A stretch of 24,000 nt of DNA from Candidatus Scatosoma sp. (GCA_045643825.1 JAZRFV010000084.1:47946-71945), one strand, 5' to 3'; shown: positions 2,913 through 24,000, counted from the stretch's first letter. Program-made: numbers and translations. The notes: a model not told the origin generated them from the sequence alone.

Positions 2913-4151
2913 ATGATATACGAGAAAAAATATGAAAATGGCTTGCGTCTCGTGGTAAAAAAGATGGAAGGCTTGATGTCCGTATCTATGGGTATTTTGG
3001 TCGGTACGGGCGCATCGGTTGAAACGGATGCCGAGGACGGTATTTCGCATTTTATCGAGCATATGCAGTTTAAAGGTACAAAGAAGCGCAACGCGTTTGA
3101 AATTTCGGATGCGTTTGACCGCTTGGGTGCGCAGGTGAACGCTTTTACCGGTCAAGACCTTACCTGCTATTATTCGAAATGTACGGTTGATCATACGGCG
3201 GCTTGCTTTGAATTACTTGCGGATTTATTCTTAAATGCAACCTTCCCTGAAGATGAAATGGTGAGGGAAAAAGGGGTTGTATGCGAAGAAATCTCTATGA
3301 ATGAGGACTCCCCTGAAGATTTGTGCTTGGATTTGTTAGGTACTGCACATTACGGTAAGGAAAACTATGGCCGTAATATTCTCGGCCCTGCAAGCAACGT
3401 AAAAGGTTTTACCGTGGAGGATATCTACCGTTATAAAAAGGCGAGATATTGCCCTGAAAATATCGTAATTTCCTTTGCAGGGAATATTGATGCGCAAACG
3501 GCACAAGCGCTTGTGGAAAGCTATTTTGGAAAGCTTGATAAAGGTGTTTTTGAGGAAAGGAAACAGACAATTGTCAATTGCCACCAAACACTTGTAAAGA
3601 CGAAACCGATTGAGCAAATGCACGTTGCGATTGCATATCCGTCCGTTGCAAGAGGGGATAAAAACGAAAACCTCATAAATGCCGTAAACGCTATTTTAGG
3701 CGGTTCGATGAGTGCAAGATTATTCCAAGAGGTACGTGAAAAACGCGGGCTTGCTTATTCGGTATATTCTTACCTTTCGCTGTTCCGTGAATGCGGTGCT
3801 TTGAAAATTTACGCAGGCGTTAATCCTACTCACGTCTACGAGGCGTACGGCGCAATTTGTGACGTAATCGAAGGGATGAAGAAAAACGGTATTACGGAAG
3901 ACGAGTTTTTGCGTAGCCGTGAGCAGTTGAAATCGGGTATGTTTTTTAGCAATGAAAGTACCAATTCACAAATGCTCCTTTACGGAAAATATATGTTGCA
4001 CTTCAATAAGATTTTTGACTTTGAGGAAAAGCTGAAAGCATTAAACGGAATGCGTCACGAGGAAGCCCAGGCGGTGATTGTCGATATGTTTGATGAAAGC
4101 CGTAAGGCGATTGCGTTGGTTGGCAATACGGATACGCCGTTGGCATTTTAA
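2913..4151 (+). CDS. M16 family (insulinase/pitrilysin-like) zinc peptidase.
   Basis: The inverted zinc motif HxxEH is present in GISHFIEHMQFKGT. The 412-aa two-domain M16 layout is present, with LFQEVREKRGLAYSVYS typical of the M16 C-terminal half. The start lies 2 nt after the upstream stop. Confidence 0.85.
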   Translation: MIYEKKYENGLRLVVKKMEGLMSVSMGILVGTGASVETDAEDGISHFIEHMQFKGTKKRNAFEISDAFDRLGAQVNAFTGQDLTCYYSKCTVDHTAACFELLADLFLNATFPEDEMVREKGVVCEEISMNEDSPEDLCLDLLGTAHYGKENYGRNILGPASNVKGFTVEDIYRYKKARYCPENIVISFAGNIDAQTAQALVESYFGKLDKGVFEERKQTIVNCHQTLVKTKPIEQMHVAIAYPSVARGDKNENLINAVNAILGGSMSARLFQEVREKRGLAYSVYSYLSLFRECGALKIYAGVNPTHVYEAYGAICDVIEGMKKNGITEDEFLRSREQLKSGMFFSNESTNSQMLLYGKYMLHFNKIFDFEEKLKALNGMRHEEAQAVIVDMFDESRKAIALVGNTDTPLAF

Positions 4152-4167
4152 TGGTGAATATATATAG

Positions 4168-4839
4168 ATGATATATTCCGACTTTCTTGAGATACTAAAC
4201 GGCTATGCGGAAAAAGAGTTTGCTGATTTTCAGCGCCGTTTGATTTTTACAAAGTATAAAATTCTTGGGGTAAGAACTCCAATCCTGCATAGGTTGGCAA
4301 AGGAGTTTTTCTCGGATTTTGAAACAATTTTCGCTTATCCAAACGAATATTACGAGGTGGCTGCAATAAAACTGTTTCAAGCGGCTACATTGCCTTACGA
4401 GGACTTTCTTAAATATCTTTACGATTGCATTACATTGATGGATAATTGGGCTCTTTGTGACGGTTTCAAGGCAAAATGCATTAAAATGCATAAAGAGGAA
4501 TTTGTTTCCGTCTTACAAGATTTGTTTGCTCATGGCGGTGAGTATGAGGAACGGTATCCGTTGGTTGTACTTTTAACGGAATATGTAGAGGGGAAATATT
4601 TACCGATTATAGAAGAATTTCTTCGTAAGGCAGATACTTCTCGTTATTACGTACATATGGCAGCGGCGTGGCTCATTGCCGAAGTTCTCGTGAAAGAGTA
4701 CGACGAAGGGGTGACGTTGTTAAAACAAGGTGTTACGGATGCCAAAACACACAACAAAGCGATACAAAAGGCAATTGAAAGCCATCGCTTAACAAACGAA
4801 CAAAAGGAATTTTTACGTTCCTTAAAAATAAGAAAATAA
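4168..4839 (+). CDS. DNA alkylation repair protein-like HEAT-repeat protein (AlkD/AlkC family).
   Basis: It is a 223-aa all-helical protein. The N-terminal pattern (EFADFQRRLIFTKYKILGVRTPILHRLAKEF) and WALCDGF resemble the DNA alkylation repair enzyme family. The call is made from memory of family motifs only. Confidence 0.55.
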   Translation: MIYSDFLEILNGYAEKEFADFQRRLIFTKYKILGVRTPILHRLAKEFFSDFETIFAYPNEYYEVAAIKLFQAATLPYEDFLKYLYDCITLMDNWALCDGFKAKCIKMHKEEFVSVLQDLFAHGGEYEERYPLVVLLTEYVEGKYLPIIEEFLRKADTSRYYVHMAAAWLIAEVLVKEYDEGVTLLKQGVTDAKTHNKAIQKAIESHRLTNEQKEFLRSLKIRK

Positions 4840-13609: not shown

Positions 13610-13638
13610 TTGCATTTTAATAAAAATTGTGTTATAAT
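13610..13638 (+). promoter_or_regulatory. Sigma-A-type promoter with an extended -10: TTGCAT, 17-bp spacer (ending TGt), TATAAT. It heads the dCMP deaminase-ppiB-purB string.
   Basis: TTGCAT is at 13610-13615, TGT at 13630-13632 and TATAAT at 13633-13638. The RBS AAAGGAGGAG is at 13661-13670. Confidence 0.55.
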
Positions 13639-13677
13639 TTATCCAGTATGTATAGCCGTAAAAGGAGGAGTGTTTTT

Positions 13678-14136
13678 ATGGGAATGAATAAATGGGATAA
13701 ACGTTTTATGGCTTTGACGGAAACGGTGGCTACGTGGTCGAGCTGTTATCAGGAAAACCGTCACGTTGGTGCGATTATTGTAAAAGATAAGCGCGTATTG
13801 ACTACGGGGTATAATGGCGCACCTGCAGGTATCAAAAGTTGCGAAGAAAAAGGGGAATGCTTACGCCGTAAGCTGAATATTGCAAGCGGGACGAAGCACG
13901 AGCTTTGTTTTGCTGTTCACGCGGAACAAAATGCTATTATTCAGGCGGCTCGTTCTGGTATTAATATCAGCGGTGCAACCCTTTATTGTACGCATCAGCC
14001 TTGCGTTATATGCGCAAAAATCATTATCAACGCAGGCATTACGCGCGTTGTATATAAAAATGGTTATCCTGACGAATTCTCTTTGCAATTGTTTGAAGAA
14101 GCAAAGGTACTCGTTGAGAAATATGAAGAAGAATAA
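13678..14136 (+). CDS. Deoxycytidylate (dCMP) deaminase, ComEB-like zinc deaminase.
   Basis: The zinc-binding motifs HAEQNAI and PCVICAKIIINAGI (CDA fold HAE...PCxxC) are present. The start is set at ATG 13678, 8 nt after AAAGGAGGAG. The tracked 13627 start would overlap the promoter -10. Confidence 0.85.
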   Translation: MGMNKWDKRFMALTETVATWSSCYQENRHVGAIIVKDKRVLTTGYNGAPAGIKSCEEKGECLRRKLNIASGTKHELCFAVHAEQNAIIQAARSGINISGATLYCTHQPCVICAKIIINAGITRVVYKNGYPDEFSLQLFEEAKVLVEKYEEE

Positions 14137-14148
14137 GAGGTATATATT

Positions 14149-14670
14149 ATGAGCAATCCTATCGTTACTTTTGAAATGGAAAACGGTAAAACCTTTAAGG
14201 CGGAGCTTTACCCTGAAAAAGCGCCTAATACGGTAAACAACTTTTTGTCGTTGGTAAACAAGGGTTTCTATAATGGCGTAATCTTTCACCGCGTTATCGC
14301 AGGTTTTATGATTCAAGGTGGTGATCCCGACGGTATGGGTACGGGTGGTCCTGGTTATCGTATCAAGGGAGAATTCTCGGGTAACGGCTTTACGCAAAAC
14401 GACATCGCGCACGAAAGAGGTGTTTTGTCGATGGCTCGTGCACAACATCCCGACTCTGCTGGTTCGCAATTCTTCGTTATGCATGATGATGCGGAATATT
14501 TGGATGGACAATATGCTGCATTCGGCCGTGTAATTGAAGGCATGGAAACGGTGGACGAAATCGCAAATATTAAGACGGATTGGTATGATAAACCTTACGA
14601 AGAACAAAAGATGAAATCCGTTACGGCGGAAACCTTTGGCGTAGAGTACGCGGAACCTATCAAAGCGTAA
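14149..14670 (+). CDS. ppiB: Peptidyl-prolyl cis-trans isomerase, cyclophilin type.
   Basis: Cyclophilin signatures are FHRVIAGFMIQGGDP, GSQFFV and LDGQYAAFGRVIEGMETVDEI. Confidence 0.9.
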   Translation: MSNPIVTFEMENGKTFKAELYPEKAPNTVNNFLSLVNKGFYNGVIFHRVIAGFMIQGGDPDGMGTGGPGYRIKGEFSGNGFTQNDIAHERGVLSMARAQHPDSAGSQFFVMHDDAEYLDGQYAAFGRVIEGMETVDEIANIKTDWYDKPYEEQKMKSVTAETFGVEYAEPIKA

Positions 14671-14680
14671 GAGGTATACG

Positions 14681-16117
14681 ATGGTTGATTACAGCGTTTA
14701 TACAAATCCCTTAATGACTCGTTATGCTAGCAAGGAAATGCAGCACGCTTTTTCCGACGAAAAACGTTTTAAGCTTTGGAGAAAACTGTGGGTGGCGCTT
14801 GCCGAAGCAGAAATGGAGCTTGGCCTAAACGTCACGCAGGAGCAGGTGGACGAATTGAAACAATACGCGGACGATATCGATTACGAATTGGCTGCTAAAT
14901 TTGAAAGAGAAGTTCGTCACGACGTTATGGCGCACGTACACGCTTATGGCGAATATGCGAAAAAAGCAATGCCCATTATTCACTTGGGTGCAACGAGCTG
15001 TTTTGTAAATTGCAACGCCGAAGCGATTATGTTGGACGAAGCATTGGATATTATCTTGAAAAAGCTCGTCAACGTAATGGATAAGCTGAAGAAATTTGCA
15101 TTGCAATATAAAGACTTGCCTACGCTTGGCTTTACCCATTTACAGCCTGCACAATTGACCACTGTTGGCAAAAGAGCAACGCTTTGGTTACAGGATTTGG
15201 AGATGGATTATATCAACCTTATCCACGCCAAAGAAACGATTAAGTTGCGTGGTGTAAAGGGTACAACGGGTACGCAAGCAAGCTTTTTAGAGCTTTTCAA
15301 CGGTGACGAGGAAAAGGTTAAGGAATTGCAAAAGCGTGTTGTTGCAAAAATGGGTTACGACAAGGTATATGGCGTTACGGGGCAAACATACCCTCGTAAG
15401 CTTGATTACAATATTTTGTGCGTATTGTCGCAAATCGCCCAAAGTGCTTATAAATTCTCTAATGATATTCGTATTTTACAAAATATGAAAGAGATTGAGG
15501 AGCCGTTTGCAAAGAAACAAATCGGTTCGTCGGCGATGGCATATAAACGCAATCCTATGCGTTCTGAACGAATCGGTGCATTGGCAAGATACGTAATTTC
15601 TTTGCCTATGAACAGCGCTTTGACGGCTTCTACGCAATGGTTTGAAAGAACCTTGGATGATTCGGCAAACCGCCGTATTGTAAACGCGCAGGCCTTCTTG
15701 GGGGTAGATGCCATTTTGAACGTATATATGGACGTTGCGGATAACCTTGTGGTTTATGAAAAGGTAATCGAAAAGCATATCCGTGCAGAGCTTCCATTTA
15801 TGGCAACGGAAAATATTATGATGGAATGCGTGAAGGCTGGCGGTAACCGTCAAGAATTGCACGAACGTATCCGCGTTTTATCCATGGAGGCAGGTAAAAC
15901 CGTAAAGGTAGAAGGTGAAGATAATAACCTTATAGACCTTATCAAGCAAGATGAAATGTTCCGACCTGTTTGGGATCATTTGGGTGATATTCTTGACGGG
16001 AAAAACTTTATCGGTAGGGCTCCTTCGCAAACGGTTGAATTTATCGAGGAAGAAATCGATCCCATTTTAAATAAGCATGCGGATTTGCTTGGTGAAAAGG
16101 GTGACGTTCGTTTATAA
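14681..16117 (+). CDS. purB: Adenylosuccinate lyase.
   Basis: The fumarate-lyase signature GSSAMAYKRNPMRSE is present. The N-terminus (YTNPLMTRYASKEM) is typical of long-form PurB. The length is 478 aa. Confidence 0.95.
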   Translation: MVDYSVYTNPLMTRYASKEMQHAFSDEKRFKLWRKLWVALAEAEMELGLNVTQEQVDELKQYADDIDYELAAKFEREVRHDVMAHVHAYGEYAKKAMPIIHLGATSCFVNCNAEAIMLDEALDIILKKLVNVMDKLKKFALQYKDLPTLGFTHLQPAQLTTVGKRATLWLQDLEMDYINLIHAKETIKLRGVKGTTGTQASFLELFNGDEEKVKELQKRVVAKMGYDKVYGVTGQTYPRKLDYNILCVLSQIAQSAYKFSNDIRILQNMKEIEEPFAKKQIGSSAMAYKRNPMRSERIGALARYVISLPMNSALTASTQWFERTLDDSANRRIVNAQAFLGVDAILNVYMDVADNLVVYEKVIEKHIRAELPFMATENIMMECVKAGGNRQELHERIRVLSMEAGKTVKVEGEDNNLIDLIKQDEMFRPVWDHLGDILDGKNFIGRAPSQTVEFIEEEIDPILNKHADLLGEKGDVRL

Positions 16118-16126
16118 GAGGAAATT

Positions 16127-16291
16127 ATGAAGAAAAATACATTACAATACATTGCCATTGGGTTGTTGACTTTAGGTATTGCAATTTTGTTGGGTGTTGG
16201 CATTTGGCTTGGCGTATCGGGTTCGAAGGACGTGCCTACTCCTCCTACCAGCTCCGAATACGACGATGGCGAATGGACAAATAATTATTGA
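16127..16291 (+). CDS. Untracked 54-codon ORF encoding a small membrane-anchored or secreted peptide. It is a candidate precursor or accessory of the downstream cassette.
   Basis: My translation is MKKNTLQYIAIGLLTLGIAILLGVGIWLGVSGSKDVPTPPTSSEYDDGEWTNNY*. The RBS AGAGGA lies 5 nt before the ATG. The ORF starts 9 nt after the purB stop and ends 3 nt before the next start. It falls below the ORF-track length cut-off. Confidence 0.5.
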   Translation: MKKNTLQYIAIGLLTLGIAILLGVGIWLGVSGSKDVPTPPTSSEYDDGEWTNNY

Positions 16292-16294
16292 TTT

Positions 16295-17032
16295 ATGATA
16301 TACGAAATTGCAGGGCTTCGCGTTAAAATTGAAAATCAGTACGATTTCACCACGAAGTTTTGCCACGAATATCTTTCAGAGGATCAAACCTCGCCCGTGG
16401 ATATCGTTGCAAAGGTTACGGCGGAGGAATTTGCGGCCGAAAGAGCCACCTCTGAAGCGTTTTCGGATGGATATATTGAAAATATATGCCTGTATCGTAG
16501 CTTGTGTAATCAAATCCCCGTGTTGGGGCGGATGTTGTTACATTGCGCCGTGTTAGAATATGATGGAAAGGGTTACGCCTTTTTAGGCCGTAGTGGGACA
16601 GGGAAATCCACACATACCCGCCTTTGGAAAAAGTATTTGGGCACCCCGAGGATGATTAACGGTGATAAGCCGATTTTACAATTCATCGGGGAAGGCTTTC
16701 TTGCCCATGGAACTCCTTGGCGAGGTAAAGAGTCGTGGGGGATTCGTTCGTTTGCACCCCTTTGTGGACTTTGCTTTTTAGAACAGGCGAAGGAAAACTC
16801 TATACGAAGGTTAACGTCTTCCGAGGTTTCTGCTCGTTTGTTTGGGCAAATTCTTTTACCGGAAGAGGAAGAAAACGTTGTTTCCACGTTAGAGCTTGCG
16901 GATAAATTGATTGCAACAACTCCTGCATATTTATTGAAGTGCGACATTTCAAAAGAAGCTGTAAAGCTGTCGTTCGAGCAATTGACAGGCTTGTCGTTTG
17001 AAGAAAGGGAACAATCCCTTGAAGAGGTATAG
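16295..17032 (+). CDS. HPr kinase/phosphorylase C-terminal-domain-like P-loop protein (HprK-related kinase of peptide-modification clusters).
   Basis: The P-loop context HCAVLEYDGKGYAFLGRSGTGKSTHTRLW parallels the HprK H-G-x-L-x(n)-G-x-SG-x-GKS motif. The N-terminal Y-x-x-x-GL-x-V-x-I-E pattern is typical of HprK-related kinases. It is adjacent to a PqqD-family gene. Confidence 0.6.
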   Translation: MIYEIAGLRVKIENQYDFTTKFCHEYLSEDQTSPVDIVAKVTAEEFAAERATSEAFSDGYIENICLYRSLCNQIPVLGRMLLHCAVLEYDGKGYAFLGRSGTGKSTHTRLWKKYLGTPRMINGDKPILQFIGEGFLAHGTPWRGKESWGIRSFAPLCGLCFLEQAKENSIRRLTSSEVSARLFGQILLPEEEENVVSTLELADKLIATTPAYLLKCDISKEAVKLSFEQLTGLSFEEREQSLEEV

Positions 17033-17034
17033 AT

Positions 17035-17298
17035 ATGAAGATTAAAAAAGGCTTTGTTCTCCGTGTGGTTGGTGGCGAAAACGTCGTTGTGCCCGTTGGC
17101 GCAATGAGTAAAACCTTCCATGGTATGATTAATCTCAATGAAACGGGGGCTTTTATGTGGAAGTTTTTCTCCGAGGAGCATACCTTGGAAGAAGGTGTTG
17201 CCGCATTGCTGTCGGAATATGAGGTGGAAGAGGATCGTGCTCGCGCTGACGTTCAAAAATTCATGGATGCAATCATGGGGAACGGTTTTGCTGAATAA
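17035..17298 (+). CDS. PqqD family protein (RiPP recognition element / peptide chaperone).
   Basis: It is 87 aa. The pattern VVVPVGAMSKTFHGMINLNETGAFMWKFFSEEHTLEE...VEEDRARADVQKFMDAIMGNGF matches the beta-strands plus winged-helix layout of PqqD/RRE proteins. The call is made by recognition only. Confidence 0.7.
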   Translation: MKIKKGFVLRVVGGENVVVPVGAMSKTFHGMINLNETGAFMWKFFSEEHTLEEGVAALLSEYEVEEDRARADVQKFMDAIMGNGFAE

Positions 17299-17768
17299 TG
17301 GAACAAATTGAAAAGCAAACAATTGAAGAGGTATTGTTATCACACGGAAAATATGTCGGACCTACGGTTGGTGTCAGTATGCTACCGATGTTGAAAAATC
17401 GTCGCGATACCATTGTTGTGTTGGCAAAAACGGAGCGATTGAAGCGCCTGGATGTAGCATTATATCGCCGTGGAGATGCCTATATTTTACACCGTGTATT
17501 GCAACCGATTGAAGGTGGATATATCATTCGAGGTGATAATTGCTACTCCGACGAGAAGGTGCCTGAAAACGCCGTTATCGGCGTTTTATCAGAATTTTTC
17601 CGCAAGGGAAAGCATTTCTACTGTACGGATAAAAAGTACCTTAAATACGCGGAAAAACGCTTAAAAACCTATAAAGTAAGACGTTTTTTTGTCTTGTTAA
17701 AGGCGAGATGTAGGAACGGTGCAAAGCGTGTCCTTTACGCGTTTGGTTTAAGAAAGAAGAGAAAATAA
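17298..17768 (+). CDS. S24/S26-family serine peptidase with an S26B (SipW/Sec11-like) Ser/His motif pattern and no N-terminal membrane anchor.
   Basis: The motifs are GVSMLPML (nucleophile Ser box), YILHRVL (HR[IV] box in place of the bacterial KR[IV]) and IIRGDNCYSDEKV (GDN box). The N-terminus is hydrophilic and the C-terminus is a basic tail. The start ATG overlaps the PqqD stop (TAATG). Confidence 0.6.
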   Translation: MEQIEKQTIEEVLLSHGKYVGPTVGVSMLPMLKNRRDTIVVLAKTERLKRLDVALYRRGDAYILHRVLQPIEGGYIIRGDNCYSDEKVPENAVIGVLSEFFRKGKHFYCTDKKYLKYAEKRLKTYKVRRFFVLLKARCRNGAKRVLYAFGLRKKRK

Positions 17769-17770
17769 CG

Positions 17771-19447
17771 ATGAAAACAAAAGCAAATAACAAAGGAAAA
17801 ATTTGGTTAAAAAAAGAGACGAGACCTTACCGCTCGTCTATCCTTTTTTTGACGAGTCTTGCCGTCTTTACGACGGTATTTTCCATTTTATTTGCGTACA
17901 TGGTGCGTTATCTCATTAATAGCGCATCGAATAAAGAAACGGAAAAACTGTGGCTTTTTGCTGGTTTACTTTTAGGATTTTTGCTTTTAAAAATTGTCTT
18001 GAAGGTAATGCGTGGCTATTTCTCGGAAAAGGCAAATGCAAAGATGACTGCAGGGCTTCGTACTCGTTTATATGGTAAAATATTGCGCTCTGATTACGCG
18101 GCAGTACAGCAATATCACAGCGGAGACTTAATCACTCGTTTAACCACCGACATTAATGAGGTTTCTGCGTATTCTGTTTCCTTATTACCTGCGGTTGTGG
18201 CTATGGCAATGCAATGCGTTGGATCTATTGTGGCTCTTTTGACGATTGATCCGTTATTTACCGCTATTTATGTGTTCGCAGGGGTAATATTTGCCGCTAT
18301 CACGATGTTTTTTAGAAAGCAATTGAAAAAGCATCATAAAGAGGTGATGTCGGCGGATGCGGAATCCCGTTCGTATATGCAGGAAAGTATTTCCTCACTT
18401 TTGACCGTAAAGGCTTATGGGGTTGAGGGGAAGAGCACGGATAAAGCGGAGGACTTCGCACAAAGCTATTATCAAAAGCGTATGAAACGCAACGGCTTGC
18501 GCGCAGGGATGAATGCAATTTTCTCGCTTTTGAGTAATTTTGGCTTAATTTTTGCCGTTGTATGGTGCAGTGTAAGTATATTGTACGGTAGAACGACTGA
18601 CTACGGTTCGATTTTGTCGGCAATTCTACTATTGATGCAGTTGCAATCGCCTCTTTCTTCATTCTCGACGATACCACCTGCGTACTATGCTCGCATAGCG
18701 AGTGGCGAGCGTTTGGCTGAAATTGAAGATATCACCGTAGAAATAACGGAAGAAGAAGGTGACGGACAGACAATTTACGAAAACCTTGCGAATATTTCCT
18801 TTAAAAACCTTGCGTTTACGTATGGTCGAGAGGAAATTTTAAGCGATATGTCGGCGCAAATTAATAAAGGTGAAATCGTTTGCTTAACGGGGCCGTCGGG
18901 CGCAGGGAAAAGCACAATATTCAAACTTTTACTGCAAGTGTATCAACCGACGTCGGGGAGTATGGTTTTGCAGATGCAAGAAGGTGAAAGCCCTTTAACA
19001 GCAAAAGAAAGAGATTTGTTTGCTTATGTCCCGCAGGGGAATTTCCTTTTCTCGGGTACAATTTATGAAAATCTTGCATTTTTCTCAAAAGAGACAAATT
19101 TGGAAGTATTAAAGGAAAAAATGCTCTCTTGCATAAAGACGGCTTGTGCAGAATTTGTTTTTGAGCTCCCTCAAGGTCTTGACACTGTTTTATCGGAAGG
19201 TGGCGCAGGTTTGTCGGAAGGGCAATTACAACGCTTGGCTGTGGCAAGGGCATTGCTTTCGGAACGTCCTATTTTGTTGTTAGACGAAGCGACCAGCGCG
19301 TTGGACGCAGATACGGAAAAACGTTTGATTGAAAATATTGCAAATCTCAACAATAAAACCTGCATATTGGTTACCCATCGACCTAAAGCGTTGGAGGTTG
19401 CCGATAAGGTTTTGCATATTGAAAACGGAAAAGTAACACAAAAATAA
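17771..19447 (+). CDS. ABC exporter, fused permease plus ATPase (type I exporter half-transporter).
   Basis: The N-terminal half is hydrophobic with about six transmembrane segments. The NBD has Walker A LTGPSGAGKST, signature LSEGQLQRLAVARAL and Walker B ILLLDEATSALD. There is no C39 peptidase domain. Confidence 0.9.
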   Translation: MKTKANNKGKIWLKKETRPYRSSILFLTSLAVFTTVFSILFAYMVRYLINSASNKETEKLWLFAGLLLGFLLLKIVLKVMRGYFSEKANAKMTAGLRTRLYGKILRSDYAAVQQYHSGDLITRLTTDINEVSAYSVSLLPAVVAMAMQCVGSIVALLTIDPLFTAIYVFAGVIFAAITMFFRKQLKKHHKEVMSADAESRSYMQESISSLLTVKAYGVEGKSTDKAEDFAQSYYQKRMKRNGLRAGMNAIFSLLSNFGLIFAVVWCSVSILYGRTTDYGSILSAILLLMQLQSPLSSFSTIPPAYYARIASGERLAEIEDITVEITEEEGDGQTIYENLANISFKNLAFTYGREEILSDMSAQINKGEIVCLTGPSGAGKSTIFKLLLQVYQPTSGSMVLQMQEGESPLTAKERDLFAYVPQGNFLFSGTIYENLAFFSKETNLEVLKEKMLSCIKTACAEFVFELPQGLDTVLSEGGAGLSEGQLQRLAVARALLSERPILLLDEATSALDADTEKRLIENIANLNNKTCILVTHRPKALEVADKVLHIENGKVTQK

Positions 19448-19470
19448 GAAGGACCGAAAGGTCCTTCTTT
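19447..19470 (+). terminator. Rho-independent terminator closing the long plus-strand gene string.
   Basis: The hairpin AGAAGGACC-GAAA-GGTCCTTCT is followed by TT. It begins at the last base of the stop codon. Confidence 0.8.
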
Positions 19471-22417: not shown

Positions 22418-22990
22418 TTATGCGTGATGTTCGCCAATACAATCTTTGATTATTTTTACGATATCCTCTATTGGGGTATCGCAATCATTGTCAATCCATT
22501 TATACACGATGGCAATTGTCCCTTGTGTATAGAATTCTAATAAGTAAGTCTTCTTTTCTTCGGGGACATTATAATGCGAAATAGCAGGATAGAGGATGCT
22601 TGAATAGATTTTTTGATATGTTTTATTTGCTTGAAAAAGCTGTGGCTTTTGATGGACGAGCTTTAATATGTGTTTATTCCTTTTTACAAAATTGAGATAG
22701 GGGATTAAATGCTTTGAAGTGATAAGGAAGGGCTCTTTGCCTATATCTACTTGCTCAATGCCATTTTGTTTAAAGGATTTAGAAAACTCTTCATTTAACA
22801 TTTCAAGGCATTCTTCCAACAATTCATAGATATTATCGTAATGCAAATAAAAGGTAGAACGGCTTACGCCTGCTTTTTGTACAATGTCTTTTACCGTAAT
22901 AAACTCCAGATCCTTCTTTTCAAGCAAGAGTAGTAGGGCTTGGTCCATAATTCTTGCCGTTGTATAATATTTGCCTTCAGTCTTTTGCAT
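22418..22990 (-). CDS. TetR/AcrR family transcriptional regulator.
   Basis: The N-terminal HTH is FITVKDIVQKAGVSRSTFYLHYDNIYELL. A strong RBS (AAAGGAGGTAAACAATG) is embedded in the 3' end of the upstream gene. The two genes overlap by 14 nt. Confidence 0.85.
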   Translation of the reverse strand: MQKTEGKYYTTARIMDQALLLLLEKKDLEFITVKDIVQKAGVSRSTFYLHYDNIYELLEECLEMLNEEFSKSFKQNGIEQVDIGKEPFLITSKHLIPYLNFVKRNKHILKLVHQKPQLFQANKTYQKIYSSILYPAISHYNVPEEKKTYLLEFYTQGTIAIVYKWIDNDCDTPIEDIVKIIKDCIGEHHA

Positions 22991-23594
22991 TGTTTACCTC
23001 CTTTGCGTTGTGTTTTGCCGTTTTTATTATATAAAACGAAAGAAAAATAATCAATAGTGAAATTGCACAGCCTAAACCACAAAGCACGATATACCGTAAA
23101 AGAAGGTTATCCTTGCCCCAGGTTGCCATCATTGTGTTTGCGAGGGTAAGCATGGATACGCTTGCGGTAATAAGACTGATAATTCGCAATGTTTTATACA
23201 GCAAATGCGGATGTTTTATGTATTTTATAAAATTTATGATACCAACGGCCATCGTGGAAAAGGTATAGGTCGCCAAGGCGATTACTACAATTTCATGATA
23301 TACGGTTGGGTGATGCTTGAAAATCATAGGAAAAATCAATGCGGATATCCATAAATTTAAGAATAACAACAACCATCCATACGCCATATATGCGTTGTTT
23401 TCTTGCCTTTTTGTTAGAGCTGGCCTATAAACGATAAAGTAAAATATGGTCAAGCGGAATATTGCCAAGGCAAAGAAATATACGCCCATCACGAAAAACC
23501 AATTAGAATGGTAGATTGCCCCAAGACAAAAGAGAAAAAGTGAGTAAAATATATTAAAGAGGAAAGATGCGCATAAAAAACATCTTATGCGCAT
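22977..23594 (-). CDS. Polytopic membrane protein of unknown function (about six predicted transmembrane helices).
   Basis: The sequence is highly hydrophobic (FLFNIFYSLFLFCLGAIY, VMGVYFFALAIFRLTIFYFIV, GWLLLFLNLWISALIFPMIF and others). The start is ambiguous. ATG 23594 follows AAGGAA, whereas the tracked ATG 23693 has no RBS and overlaps the upstream gene by 50 nt. Confidence 0.55.
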   Translation of the reverse strand: MRIRCFLCASFLFNIFYSLFLFCLGAIYHSNWFFVMGVYFFALAIFRLTIFYFIVYRPALTKRQENNAYMAYGWLLLFLNLWISALIFPMIFKHHPTVYHEIVVIALATYTFSTMAVGIINFIKYIKHPHLLYKTLRIISLITASVSMLTLANTMMATWGKDNLLLRYIVLCGLGCAISLLIIFLSFYIIKTAKHNAKEVNNAKD

Positions 23595-23643
23595 ATCTAC
23601 ATTTTCCTTCAATGTCCGTAATATGGAGGGGCGTTTGCGCTCT

Positions 23644-24000
23644 TTATTGTTCTTGTGCAATTTCATTCGCAAGACGTAAAATATCCGTTGCATACTTATT
23701 TTTCGACTTTGTCAGCATCCGTTTGTAGATAGGGTAGTTGATGGCTGTACCTAAAATACCGATGCAGCCGATGAGGATGCCAAGGGCAACCGAAAGGTTG
23801 TTTCCTGCACCAATTACTTTCATTGCAAGGCTCATGCCCGTTCCCAAAATAAGGCTGGATACAATACCAAAGGTAAAGGAAAAGATTTTTGCGGGGCTTT
23901 TAGCGCGTGCATCTAATTTTTTCAAGGCTTTTACCTTTGAGGTTTGCTTCGGAGCATATTCGTTTGCGATTTGCTCCGCGTAGATTTTGTCAGTATTCAT
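23644..24000 (-). CDS. Small two-transmembrane membrane protein of unknown function. Its ATG sits exactly at the window edge, so the 5' end cannot be verified.
   Basis: A hydrophilic N-terminus (MNTDKIYAEQIANEYAPKQTSKVKALKKLDARAKSPAK) is followed by two hydrophobic helices and a basic C-terminal tail. It is the first gene visible in a three-gene minus-strand unit that ends with the TetR gene. Confidence 0.5.
   Translation of the reverse strand: MNTDKIYAEQIANEYAPKQTSKVKALKKLDARAKSPAKIFSFTFGIVSSLILGTGMSLAMKVIGAGNNLSVALGILIGCIGILGTAINYPIYKRMLTKSKNKYATDILRLANEIAQEQ

Follow-up and report, generated by a model that had tools for sequence, protein, structure and literature searches.

A Candidatus Scatosoma gene cassette resembling the machinery for linear polyphosphorylated peptides, with an atypical candidate precursor

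Gene array and operon setting

We analysed a 24,000-nucleotide stretch of a Candidatus Scatosoma sp. genome (GCA_045643825.1, JAZRFV010000084.1:47946-71945), referred to throughout as the window. Five plus-strand open reading frames (ORFs) span positions 16127-19447 and are followed by a hairpin. They encode, in order, a small protein, an HprK-like P-loop protein, a discrete PqqD-type RiPP recognition element (RRE; RiPP, ribosomally synthesised and post-translationally modified peptide), a serine peptidase and an ABC exporter. The original prediction for this locus, made from the DNA alone, knew of no characterised system with this combination of genes. That view is out of date, since lppAKBSDN, described from Paenibacillus alginolyticus and other Bacilli as the source of linear polyphosphorylated peptides (LPPs), matches it in genes and order (Popov et al., Nat Commun 2026, PMC13381572). 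We consider the cassette, with a probability of roughly 0.7, to be a nucleotidyltransferase-free clostridial branch of the LPP RiPP machinery, and we infer its chemistry and its substrate by analogy.

The coordinates of the five ORFs were confirmed, as were the gaps of 3, 2, -1 (a TAATG overlap) and 2 nt between them (Table 1). The proposal that they form a compact unit closed by its own terminator held in part: a GC-rich hairpin is present at 19446-19469, but a separate transcription unit is improbable because the small ORF begins 9 nt past the purB stop codon and the spacing further upstream is equally close, the gaps from the dCMP deaminase gene through those for peptidyl-prolyl isomerase and PurB to the small ORF being 12, 10 and 9 nt. 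The cassette is thus probably the distal half of a housekeeping operon, co-transcribed with the deaminase, isomerase and purB genes. The hairpin was scored as a terminator on the minus strand and its plus-strand T-tract is short; it is likely to be a bidirectional terminator. The deaminase-isomerase-purB synteny ahead of the cassette is common to most related loci, and the flanks differ in the deeper clades. A HAD hydrolase gene downstream was considered as a further member of the cassette and rejected, since it is restricted to the window and the related locus L001.

Table 1. Features of the cassette and its surroundings, in window coordinates
Feature	Position	Strand	Remarks
Upstream housekeeping genes: dCMP deaminase, peptidyl-prolyl isomerase, adenylosuccinate lyase PurB	13627..16117	+	Pfam of L001 orthologues
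Small ORF, lppA position	16127-16291	+	54 aa; Shine-Dalgarno AGAGGA
Codons of conserved C-terminal W-T-N-N-Y	16274..16288	+	family consensus [D/E]-x-W-T-x-N-Y-stop
LppK-like kinase candidate, HprK/PEPCK-fold P-loop protein, Pfam ScmC	16295-17032	+	245 aa
Walker A P-loop GRSGTGKST	16586-16612	+	read off the sequence
Discrete PqqD-type RRE, LppB-like	17035-17298	+	87 aa; PF05402
LppS-like leader peptidase candidate, SpI/S26-type Ser-His(-Asp)	17298-17768	+	156 aa
LppD-like MsbA-type ABC exporter	17771-19447	+	558 aa; PF00664 and PF00005
Hairpin ending the array	19446-19469	.	10 pairs, 5 G-C

Four proteins related to LPP enzymes

The LPP clusters comprise a precursor (LppA), an HprK-like kinase (LppK), an RRE (LppB), a peptidase resembling signal peptidase I (SpI; LppS), an MsbA-like exporter (LppD) and a nucleoside triphosphate (NTP) transferase (LppN) (PMC13381572). 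For the candidate kinase of the window, the AlphaFold2 model (predicted local distance difference test score, pLDDT, 91.8) retrieved ATP-PEPCK and HprK/P as top Foldseek matches (E 5e-7 to 1e-4), and precomputed Pfam annotation places the protein in PF27840 'ScmC'. The HprK-like assignment of the original prediction is therefore upheld at the level of the HprK/PEPCK fold and the Pfam family, but a direct search with the Hpr_kinase_C hidden Markov model (HMM) gave no match. The best NCBIfam match is TIGR04249 (ScmC; E 7e-9), at 35.4 bits and below its cutoff of 125. Among 15 homologues, residues S100-T106 (within GRSGTGKST), H83 and the segment N122-G-D-K-P126 are invariant, with R99 nearly so; the arrangement of His83, P-loop and NGDKP parallels the His, Walker A and Asp layout of HprK/P. 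Mean column identity among relatives is 77%, and the contig index held no exact match to the window kinase. With the kinase domains of L094 and L088, two loci with canonical LppA-like precursors nearby, the protein shares 35-41% identity, and it is this identity, together with fold and motifs, rather than an alignment to LppK itself, that marks it as an LPP-type HprK-like kinase.

We know of discrete PqqD RREs only as peptide-binding adaptors, and the assignment of the third ORF to this family was borne out (PF05402, E 1.4e-16). Its match to TIGR04248 (ScmD) reaches 27.4 bits, below the cutoff of 100, and its best sequence matches in the PDB are PbaB1 (9x90, 5e-4) and LppB (9x8z, 7e-3). In LppB, N33, D70 and F74 hold the YxxP leader motif (PMC13381572). 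These residues align with N35, D72 and F76 of the window RRE, which accordingly has the Asn and Asp of a YxxP-holding element; the three are kept in 69/69, 66/69 and 69/69 relatives, in clades both with and without the small ORF. The window protein carries a 5-residue insertion (KTFHG) that is absent from LppB. Its binding strand (FHGMINLN) differs little from the one in the RRE of L088, a locus with a canonical YEKP...FET precursor close by. It is also 40% identical to the RREs of cluster 4 in the sequence similarity network (SSN) of the LPP study.

An anchorless Ser-His peptidase of the S24/S26 type had been predicted, and this description stands on the fold, an invariant Ser27/His65 pair and the lack of a transmembrane segment, although HMM matches are weak and below all cutoffs (sigpep_I_arch, TIGR02228, 4.4e-5; SodN protease, 6e-3). 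The model (pLDDT 76) gave SipA, LexA, UmuD' and SpsB as its first fold matches, with E about 1e-2. All 79 relatives have Ser27 (GVSMLP), His65 (LHRV), Asp80 (RGDN) and Glu86, and 75 of them have Asp85. The highest Kyte-Doolittle value over 19 residues is 0.79, so that on this measure the protein does not have the membrane anchor of a housekeeping type I signal peptidase (S26, SipW type). It begins with an N-terminal helix and ends with a very basic one, the net charge over residues 109-156 being +17. Alignment with LppS (WP_029196374) using hhalign gave a probability of 78% and E 1.9e-5, and placed S27, H65, D80, D85 and E86 on LppS S29, H68, D87, D93 and E94, in agreement with an SpI-like leader peptidase with catalytic Ser, His and Asp. 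In LppS, S29, H68 and D93 are catalytic and essential by mutation, the leader is cut after F-E-T, LppB is required and unphosphorylated peptide is a poor substrate (PMC13381572).

By BLASTP the window peptidase is nearer to other branches of the SSN than to LppS, with 34% identity (6.5e-20) to a cluster-9 member and E values of 2e-13 to 1e-7 for cluster-4 members, as against 27% identity (8e-6) for LppS, which belongs to cluster 1. The RREs of clusters 9 and 4 were filed as 'RRE others' and left unanalysed (PMC13381572). The N-terminal helix of LppS contacts LppB (PMC13381572); position 10 of the corresponding helix is Glu in 64 of 67 cassettes with a PqqD gene and Lys in 10 of 12 without one, a difference that is confounded by phylogeny.

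The exporter is a half-transporter with fused membrane and ATPase domains (PF00664, ABC_membrane, 5.7e-35; PF00005, ABC_tran, 1.1e-27), as had been proposed, and it has no C39 peptidase domain. The top NCBIfam matches are of the MsbA type, TIGR02204 at 277 bits and TIGR02203 at 269 bits, and the latter is the model used in the co-occurrence table for LPP clusters. Indeed, the HMMs matched in the window (TIGR02228, PqqD and TIGR02203) are those that define LPP clusters in that table, NTP_transf_5 excepted, and the LPP kinase is itself mostly entered there as 'no_match'. The two systems thus share a kinase, a discrete PqqD RRE, an anchorless SpI/SipW-like peptidase and an MsbA-like exporter in the order A-K-B-S-D with a small ORF first, and both are without a cyclase. 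They differ in that the window cassette is clostridial, whereas LPP clusters are from Bacilli, lacks LppN (NTP_transf_5) and lies in a housekeeping operon rather than in a capsule locus; its inheritance looks vertical, as opposed to patchy in Bacilli (PMC13381572), and some of its relatives have no RRE. What is new, in a kind of system that was already known, is a branch from Clostridia without LppN, set in a housekeeping operon, whose candidate precursor is atypical and which is RRE-less in one clade.

Conservation was scanned with one genome per species (80 loci), and 87 related loci served for searches. Almost all of the 80 come from metagenome-assembled genomes (MAGs) of uncultured gut or rumen Clostridia that carry the names Candidatus Scatosoma, Christensenellaceae or Catabacter. 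Where a locus is long enough for a judgement, the kinase, peptidase and exporter genes are almost always direct neighbours in the same orientation, and most loci have a PqqD gene in the interval from kinase to peptidase; in 12 loci that form a deep clade, no PqqD gene was found within about 8 kb. The four-gene set, with this one clade as the exception for PqqD, is kept in the 80 species-level genomes and looks vertically inherited. The window and the 87 loci contained no homologue of the radical S-adenosylmethionine (rSAM) region of the distant locus L091 by tblastn, so that no such core enzyme was found within about 8 kb of the homologous cassettes. The predicted lack of other RiPP core enzymes was also upheld: Pfam scans of the window ORFs found no rSAM enzyme, no lasso C or B2 protein (Asn-synthetase-like, transglutaminase-like), no YcaO and no LanM, and lasso C and B2 were equally absent from the precomputed Pfam annotation of the syntenic contigs L001 and L004-L007. 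With four NTP_transf_5 proteins as queries, tblastn gave no match in the window or in 86 of the 87 loci. The sole Scatosoma-type locus with a match, L055, has NTP_transf_5 directly after the exporter (3481-4512), and this K-B-S-D-N order links the clostridial branch to the full LPP layout.

More distant relatives provide further connections. A kinase profile search of 1.84 billion representatives returned 10099 clusters (50% identity) at E<=1e-3 and 1051 at E<=1e-30. Kinase domains are fused to NTP_transf_5 in P0248, P0262 and P0343, and to S24/S26 peptidases in P0319, P0447 and the 380-aa proteins of L093-L095, with a kinase-S26-like fusion also in L092; L093-L095 are ordered PqqD, kinase::peptidase, ABC, NTP_transf_5. 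L091 (7383-15083) is a full radical-SAM RiPP cluster, in which genes for NTP_transf_5, an S26-like peptidase (37% identical), an rSAM::kinase fusion, an 82-aa Cys/His/Tyr-rich peptide, a PqqD protein and an ABC exporter are flanked by glycosyltransferase, LicD, VanZ and choline-kinase genes; the fusion (P0449) is a 778-aa rSAM/SPASM maturase whose ScmC-type kinase domain is 35% identical to the window kinase. Short ORFs with a [Y/F]xKP...(FET/INE)xDVIxxS leader and acidic, Trp-containing C-termini (DGNWYDE, GKEDW, GEDVWE) are found in L094 (3799-3936 and 5840-5977) and L088 (2894-3010), with small Ser/acid-rich lipoproteins alongside in both loci. They look like LppA-type precursors of clostridial or Bacilli-MAG origin. 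Given the homology, the conserved catalytic residues, the fusions and the gene order, the machinery of the window almost certainly works like LppK, LppB, LppS and LppD.

Three other systems bear partial resemblance. In SynChlorMet (TIGR04248-TIGR04250: ScmC, ScmD, ScmE/F) a ScmC-family P-loop protein adjoins a PqqD-family protein; the window proteins, by contrast, score far under the ScmC and ScmD equivalog cutoffs, and the scanned ORFs include no radical SAM/SPASM protein of the ScmE/F type. To our knowledge, the SynChlorMet cassette as described in TIGRFAMs has no peptidase or exporter. A literature search found no paper on SynChlorMet, nor one on the combination of PqqD, HPr kinase and signal peptidase, and the RRE-Finder paper and a 2025 RRE paper make no mention of kinases or S24/S26 peptidases. 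SodX, the maturation protease of nickel superoxide dismutase, and SipW/Sec11-type enzymes (S26B) share the S26 fold and the Ser/His pair, and SodX is likewise a soluble enzyme that removes an N-terminal propeptide, but the window peptidase scores below all their cutoffs, is without a membrane anchor unlike SipW, and is tied genetically to a kinase, an RRE and an exporter. Finally, in phosphorylated lasso peptide clusters of the paeninodin and pseudomycoidin type (K, B1, B2, C, D, N), an HprK-like kinase acts on a precursor peptide, alongside B1, which is a discrete PqqD protein, and the ABC exporter D (PMC6993621, PMC13381572); the best solved relative of the window RRE is PbaB1. The window differs in lacking cyclase C, B2 and nucleotidyltransferase, and in having an S26-type serine peptidase in place of a cysteine peptidase.

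Some side observations on these loci may be recorded. In each of two MAGs (L034/L042 and L012/L062) the purB-linked cassette occurs twice and only one copy has the small ORF, probably because two strains were binned together and not through true duplication. A pair of genes for proteins of ~700 and ~250 aa adjoins the cassette, on either side, in the deep-clade loci L064, L072, L076 and L083 (4 of 17 loci with mapped neighbours); by C-terminus and sizes it looks like an ordinary pyruvate formate-lyase with its activase, and it was set aside as a candidate for a hidden maturase. Elsewhere in the window, a 238-aa ORF without a Pfam match (22977-23693, minus strand) lies directly upstream of a TetR-family regulator gene on the same strand, overlapping its start by 14 nt.

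The small ORF ahead of the kinase gene

The first ORF occupies the position of lppA. Its product has a basic N-terminus, a hydrophobic stretch at residues 9-27 (Kyte-Doolittle maximum 2.43), a linker rich in Pro, Ser and acidic residues, and the C-terminus DGEWTNNY. The window and 28 of the 87 loci have an ORF ending in W-[T/S]-x-[N/S]-[Y/H]-stop immediately ahead of the kinase gene, and near variants occur in two further loci. The expected co-occurrence of a small upstream ORF with the cassette was thus seen in these loci, but about 57 of the 80 genome loci have none within 8 kb. Each family member is preceded by a Shine-Dalgarno sequence and follows one plan: a basic N-terminus, about 20 hydrophobic residues, a polar or acidic linker that varies, and the conserved tail. 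A lipobox Cys closes the hydrophobic segment in 17 of 27 members, with polar residues after it.

The codons of the tail vary synonymously (ACA/ACG/ACT, AAT/AAC, TAT/TAC, TAA/TGA) and the distance to the kinase start codon ranges from overlap to about 15 nt, which shows that selection acts on the peptide itself. The synonymous codons, the differing stops and the variable spacing also rule out the possibility that the 3' end of the ORF serves as a ribosome-binding site or RNA element for the kinase gene. A second candidate role, that of a general sorting-type signal carried by other proteins, was rejected as well. No other ORF among the 11319 ORFs of the loci has the WTxNY motif, and of 101 stretches found in a metagenome scan for [D/E]WTNNY-stop two are genuine, both immediately upstream of a kinase gene, the others being chance matches with no ORF. 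Separately, a 22-aa ORF with the sequence MYKKMYLIFLYFKN[YF]NEWTNNY in the environmental metagenome contigs L106, L107, L151, L158, L161, L170, L186 and L194 matches the motif; it has no cassette nearby and looks unrelated.

The association with the kinase gene extends beyond the purB context and beyond cassettes with an RRE. On the metagenome contig L174 (1-1000, reverse strand) an ORF ending ...DQDWTNNY-stop is followed by the kinase gene and then by the peptidase gene, with no PqqD gene between them; the L174 proteins are closest to the deep PqqD-less clade. L064 has a divergent small ORF ahead of its kinase gene outside the purB context, and L016 (7523-7991) has two tandem lipoprotein-like WxKNY ORFs (EGWSKNY, QKWTKNY) upstream of the kinase gene. 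In the kinase tree, the loci with the small ORF make up one large clade, in which it was lost a few times, and the sister clade does not have it. As judged from these sequences, the association of small ORF and kinase is old, specific and independent of purB and of the RRE.

The small ORF does not resemble LppA. Precursors of the LPP clusters share a YxxPxVLxHQxIxFETxxS leader and vary at the C-terminus (PMC13381572), whereas the window protein is without that leader and combines a signal- or lipobox-like N-terminus and a variable middle with a conserved C-terminus. Scans for YxxP...FET or YxxP/KP...DVI-type precursors found none in the window or in L001-L087 (~16 kb each), and the same scans recovered those of L088 and L094. 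We also observed that the cores of some Paenibacillus LppA proteins end in ...DGSWTPLP or ...DGSWSPLP (Supplementary Data 1, PMC13381572), similar to the DGEWTNNY encoded at window positions 16265-16288, a resemblance that may be coincidence or may reflect a shared functional epitope.

Candidate substrate, alternatives and significance

The scheme of the original prediction, in which RRE, kinase, serine peptidase and ABC transporter together produce a linear peptide, has been shown experimentally for LPP clusters (PMC13381572), and by analogy we extend it to the window. The HprK-like protein would phosphorylate a hydroxyl residue of a ribosomal peptide at the expense of ATP. The PqqD protein would bind this peptide and hand it to the cytoplasmic SpI-like Ser/His peptidase, which would remove its N-terminal part, and the MsbA-like pump would export the linear product. 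By little better than even odds, we favour the small ORF as the substrate because of its lppA position, its translational coupling, its occurrence nowhere but beside the kinase gene, its duplication in L016, and its conserved Thr followed by x-N-Y. It could be recognised through its C-terminal [D/E]xWTxNY instead of a YxxP leader. Speculating further by analogy with LppA, where the cut falls after F-E-T and Ser+3 is modified, a cut after the invariant Thr would free x-N-Y, with the terminal Tyr as phosphate acceptor.

Several observations weigh against this choice of substrate. The cassette proteins are conserved in the roughly 57 of 80 loci that lack the small ORF, and the small ORF has no [Y/W]xxP motif, although the RRE retains the residues that bind YxxP and an L088-like strand. 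With a Sec- or lipoprotein-like N-terminus, the conserved tail would be extracellular and so separated from the kinase, RRE and peptidase in the cytoplasm. Finally, LppK adds up to four phosphates to core Ser3 and does not phosphorylate Thr or Tyr variants of its substrate (PMC13381572). The idea that the 54-aa product is a normal RRE-recruited precursor, as had been supposed, is not supported, given the missing motif and the occurrence of the ORF beside an RRE-less cassette. Tentatively, the LPP-type kinase, peptidase and exporter may instead have been retargeted in Christensenellales to a new class of precursor, with a Sec/lipoprotein-type N-terminus, RRE-independent recognition of [D/E]xWTxNY, processing after the invariant Thr and phosphorylation on the terminal Tyr or on the Thr.

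These difficulties would be met if the machinery is LPP-like but acts on a canonical YxxP-leader peptide from another part of the genome, the WTxNY protein being an exported, often lipid-anchored accessory such as an extracellular partner of the exporter or of the product. The YxxP-binding residues of the RRE are kept whether or not the small ORF is present, the binding strand matches that of L088 with its canonical precursor, and the adjacent small ORF is missing from most cassettes; the LPP dataset has a column, with entries, for precursors located elsewhere in the genome (PMC13381572), small acidic lipoproteins lie near canonical precursors in L088 and L094, and the signal-peptide- or lipobox-like N-terminus suits an exported protein. 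We nevertheless hold this arrangement, the main alternative, to be less likely, as neither the 24-kb window nor the 87 loci of ~16 kb yielded a canonical precursor, the small ORF sits translationally coupled in the exact lppA slot and was never seen apart from the kinase gene, and it also accompanies the RRE-less cassette of L174.

A more radical departure from LPP biology would be a role outside any natural-product pathway. In Christensenellales, LPP-type parts would then serve a housekeeping module for processing and export related to the envelope, for instance to mature or remove a membrane-anchored peptide. The position of the cassette in the deaminase-isomerase-purB operon with gaps of 9-12 nt, its apparently vertical spread across 80 species with high conservation (77% for the kinase) in contrast to the patchy LPPs of Bacilli, the core trio without RRE in the deep clade, and the location of relatives in glycosyltransferase, LicD, VanZ or Wzt loci would all fit. 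It is improbable, however, considering that all four proteins are homologous to those of an experimentally shown RiPP pathway, that discrete PqqD RREs are, as far as we know, peptide-binding adaptors, and that distant relatives have obvious RiPP precursors. Far less credible still, and largely refuted, is the view of the cassette as a fragment or decaying remnant of a larger lasso, SynChlorMet or radical-SAM cluster whose core enzyme lies just outside. The fusion of an rSAM/SPASM maturase to a kinase domain in L091 (35% identity) and the ScmC model as best NCBIfam match of the kinase gave it some initial appeal, but neither the window nor the 87 loci contain a homologue of the L091 radical-SAM region, Pfam identified no radical-SAM, Asn-synthetase-like or transglutaminase-like protein in the window, and the flanks are housekeeping genes that differ between clades. 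Nor is the cassette decaying, because the catalytic residues are invariant in 79 peptidases and 15 kinases.

Read as a branch of the LPP machinery, the cassette makes the combination of LPP-type kinase, RRE, SpI-like peptidase and exporter a conserved, apparently vertical trait of uncultured gut Christensenellales, namely Candidatus Scatosoma and its relatives. The family reaches far past what the LPP study analysed, as the 10099 clusters found with the kinase profile indicate. In Bacilli, LppN had no detectable effect, and the final product and role of LPPs are not known (PMC13381572). The LppN-less cassette, with four enzymes and one short motif in a five-residue C-terminus, would offer a simpler model of LPP chemistry, and it suggests that the machinery can dispense with a YxxP leader and, in one clade, with the RRE as well. 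If the tentative retargeting to WTxNY proteins is true, widespread gut bacteria would produce a tiny conserved phosphopeptide or modified lipopeptide constitutively from a housekeeping operon.

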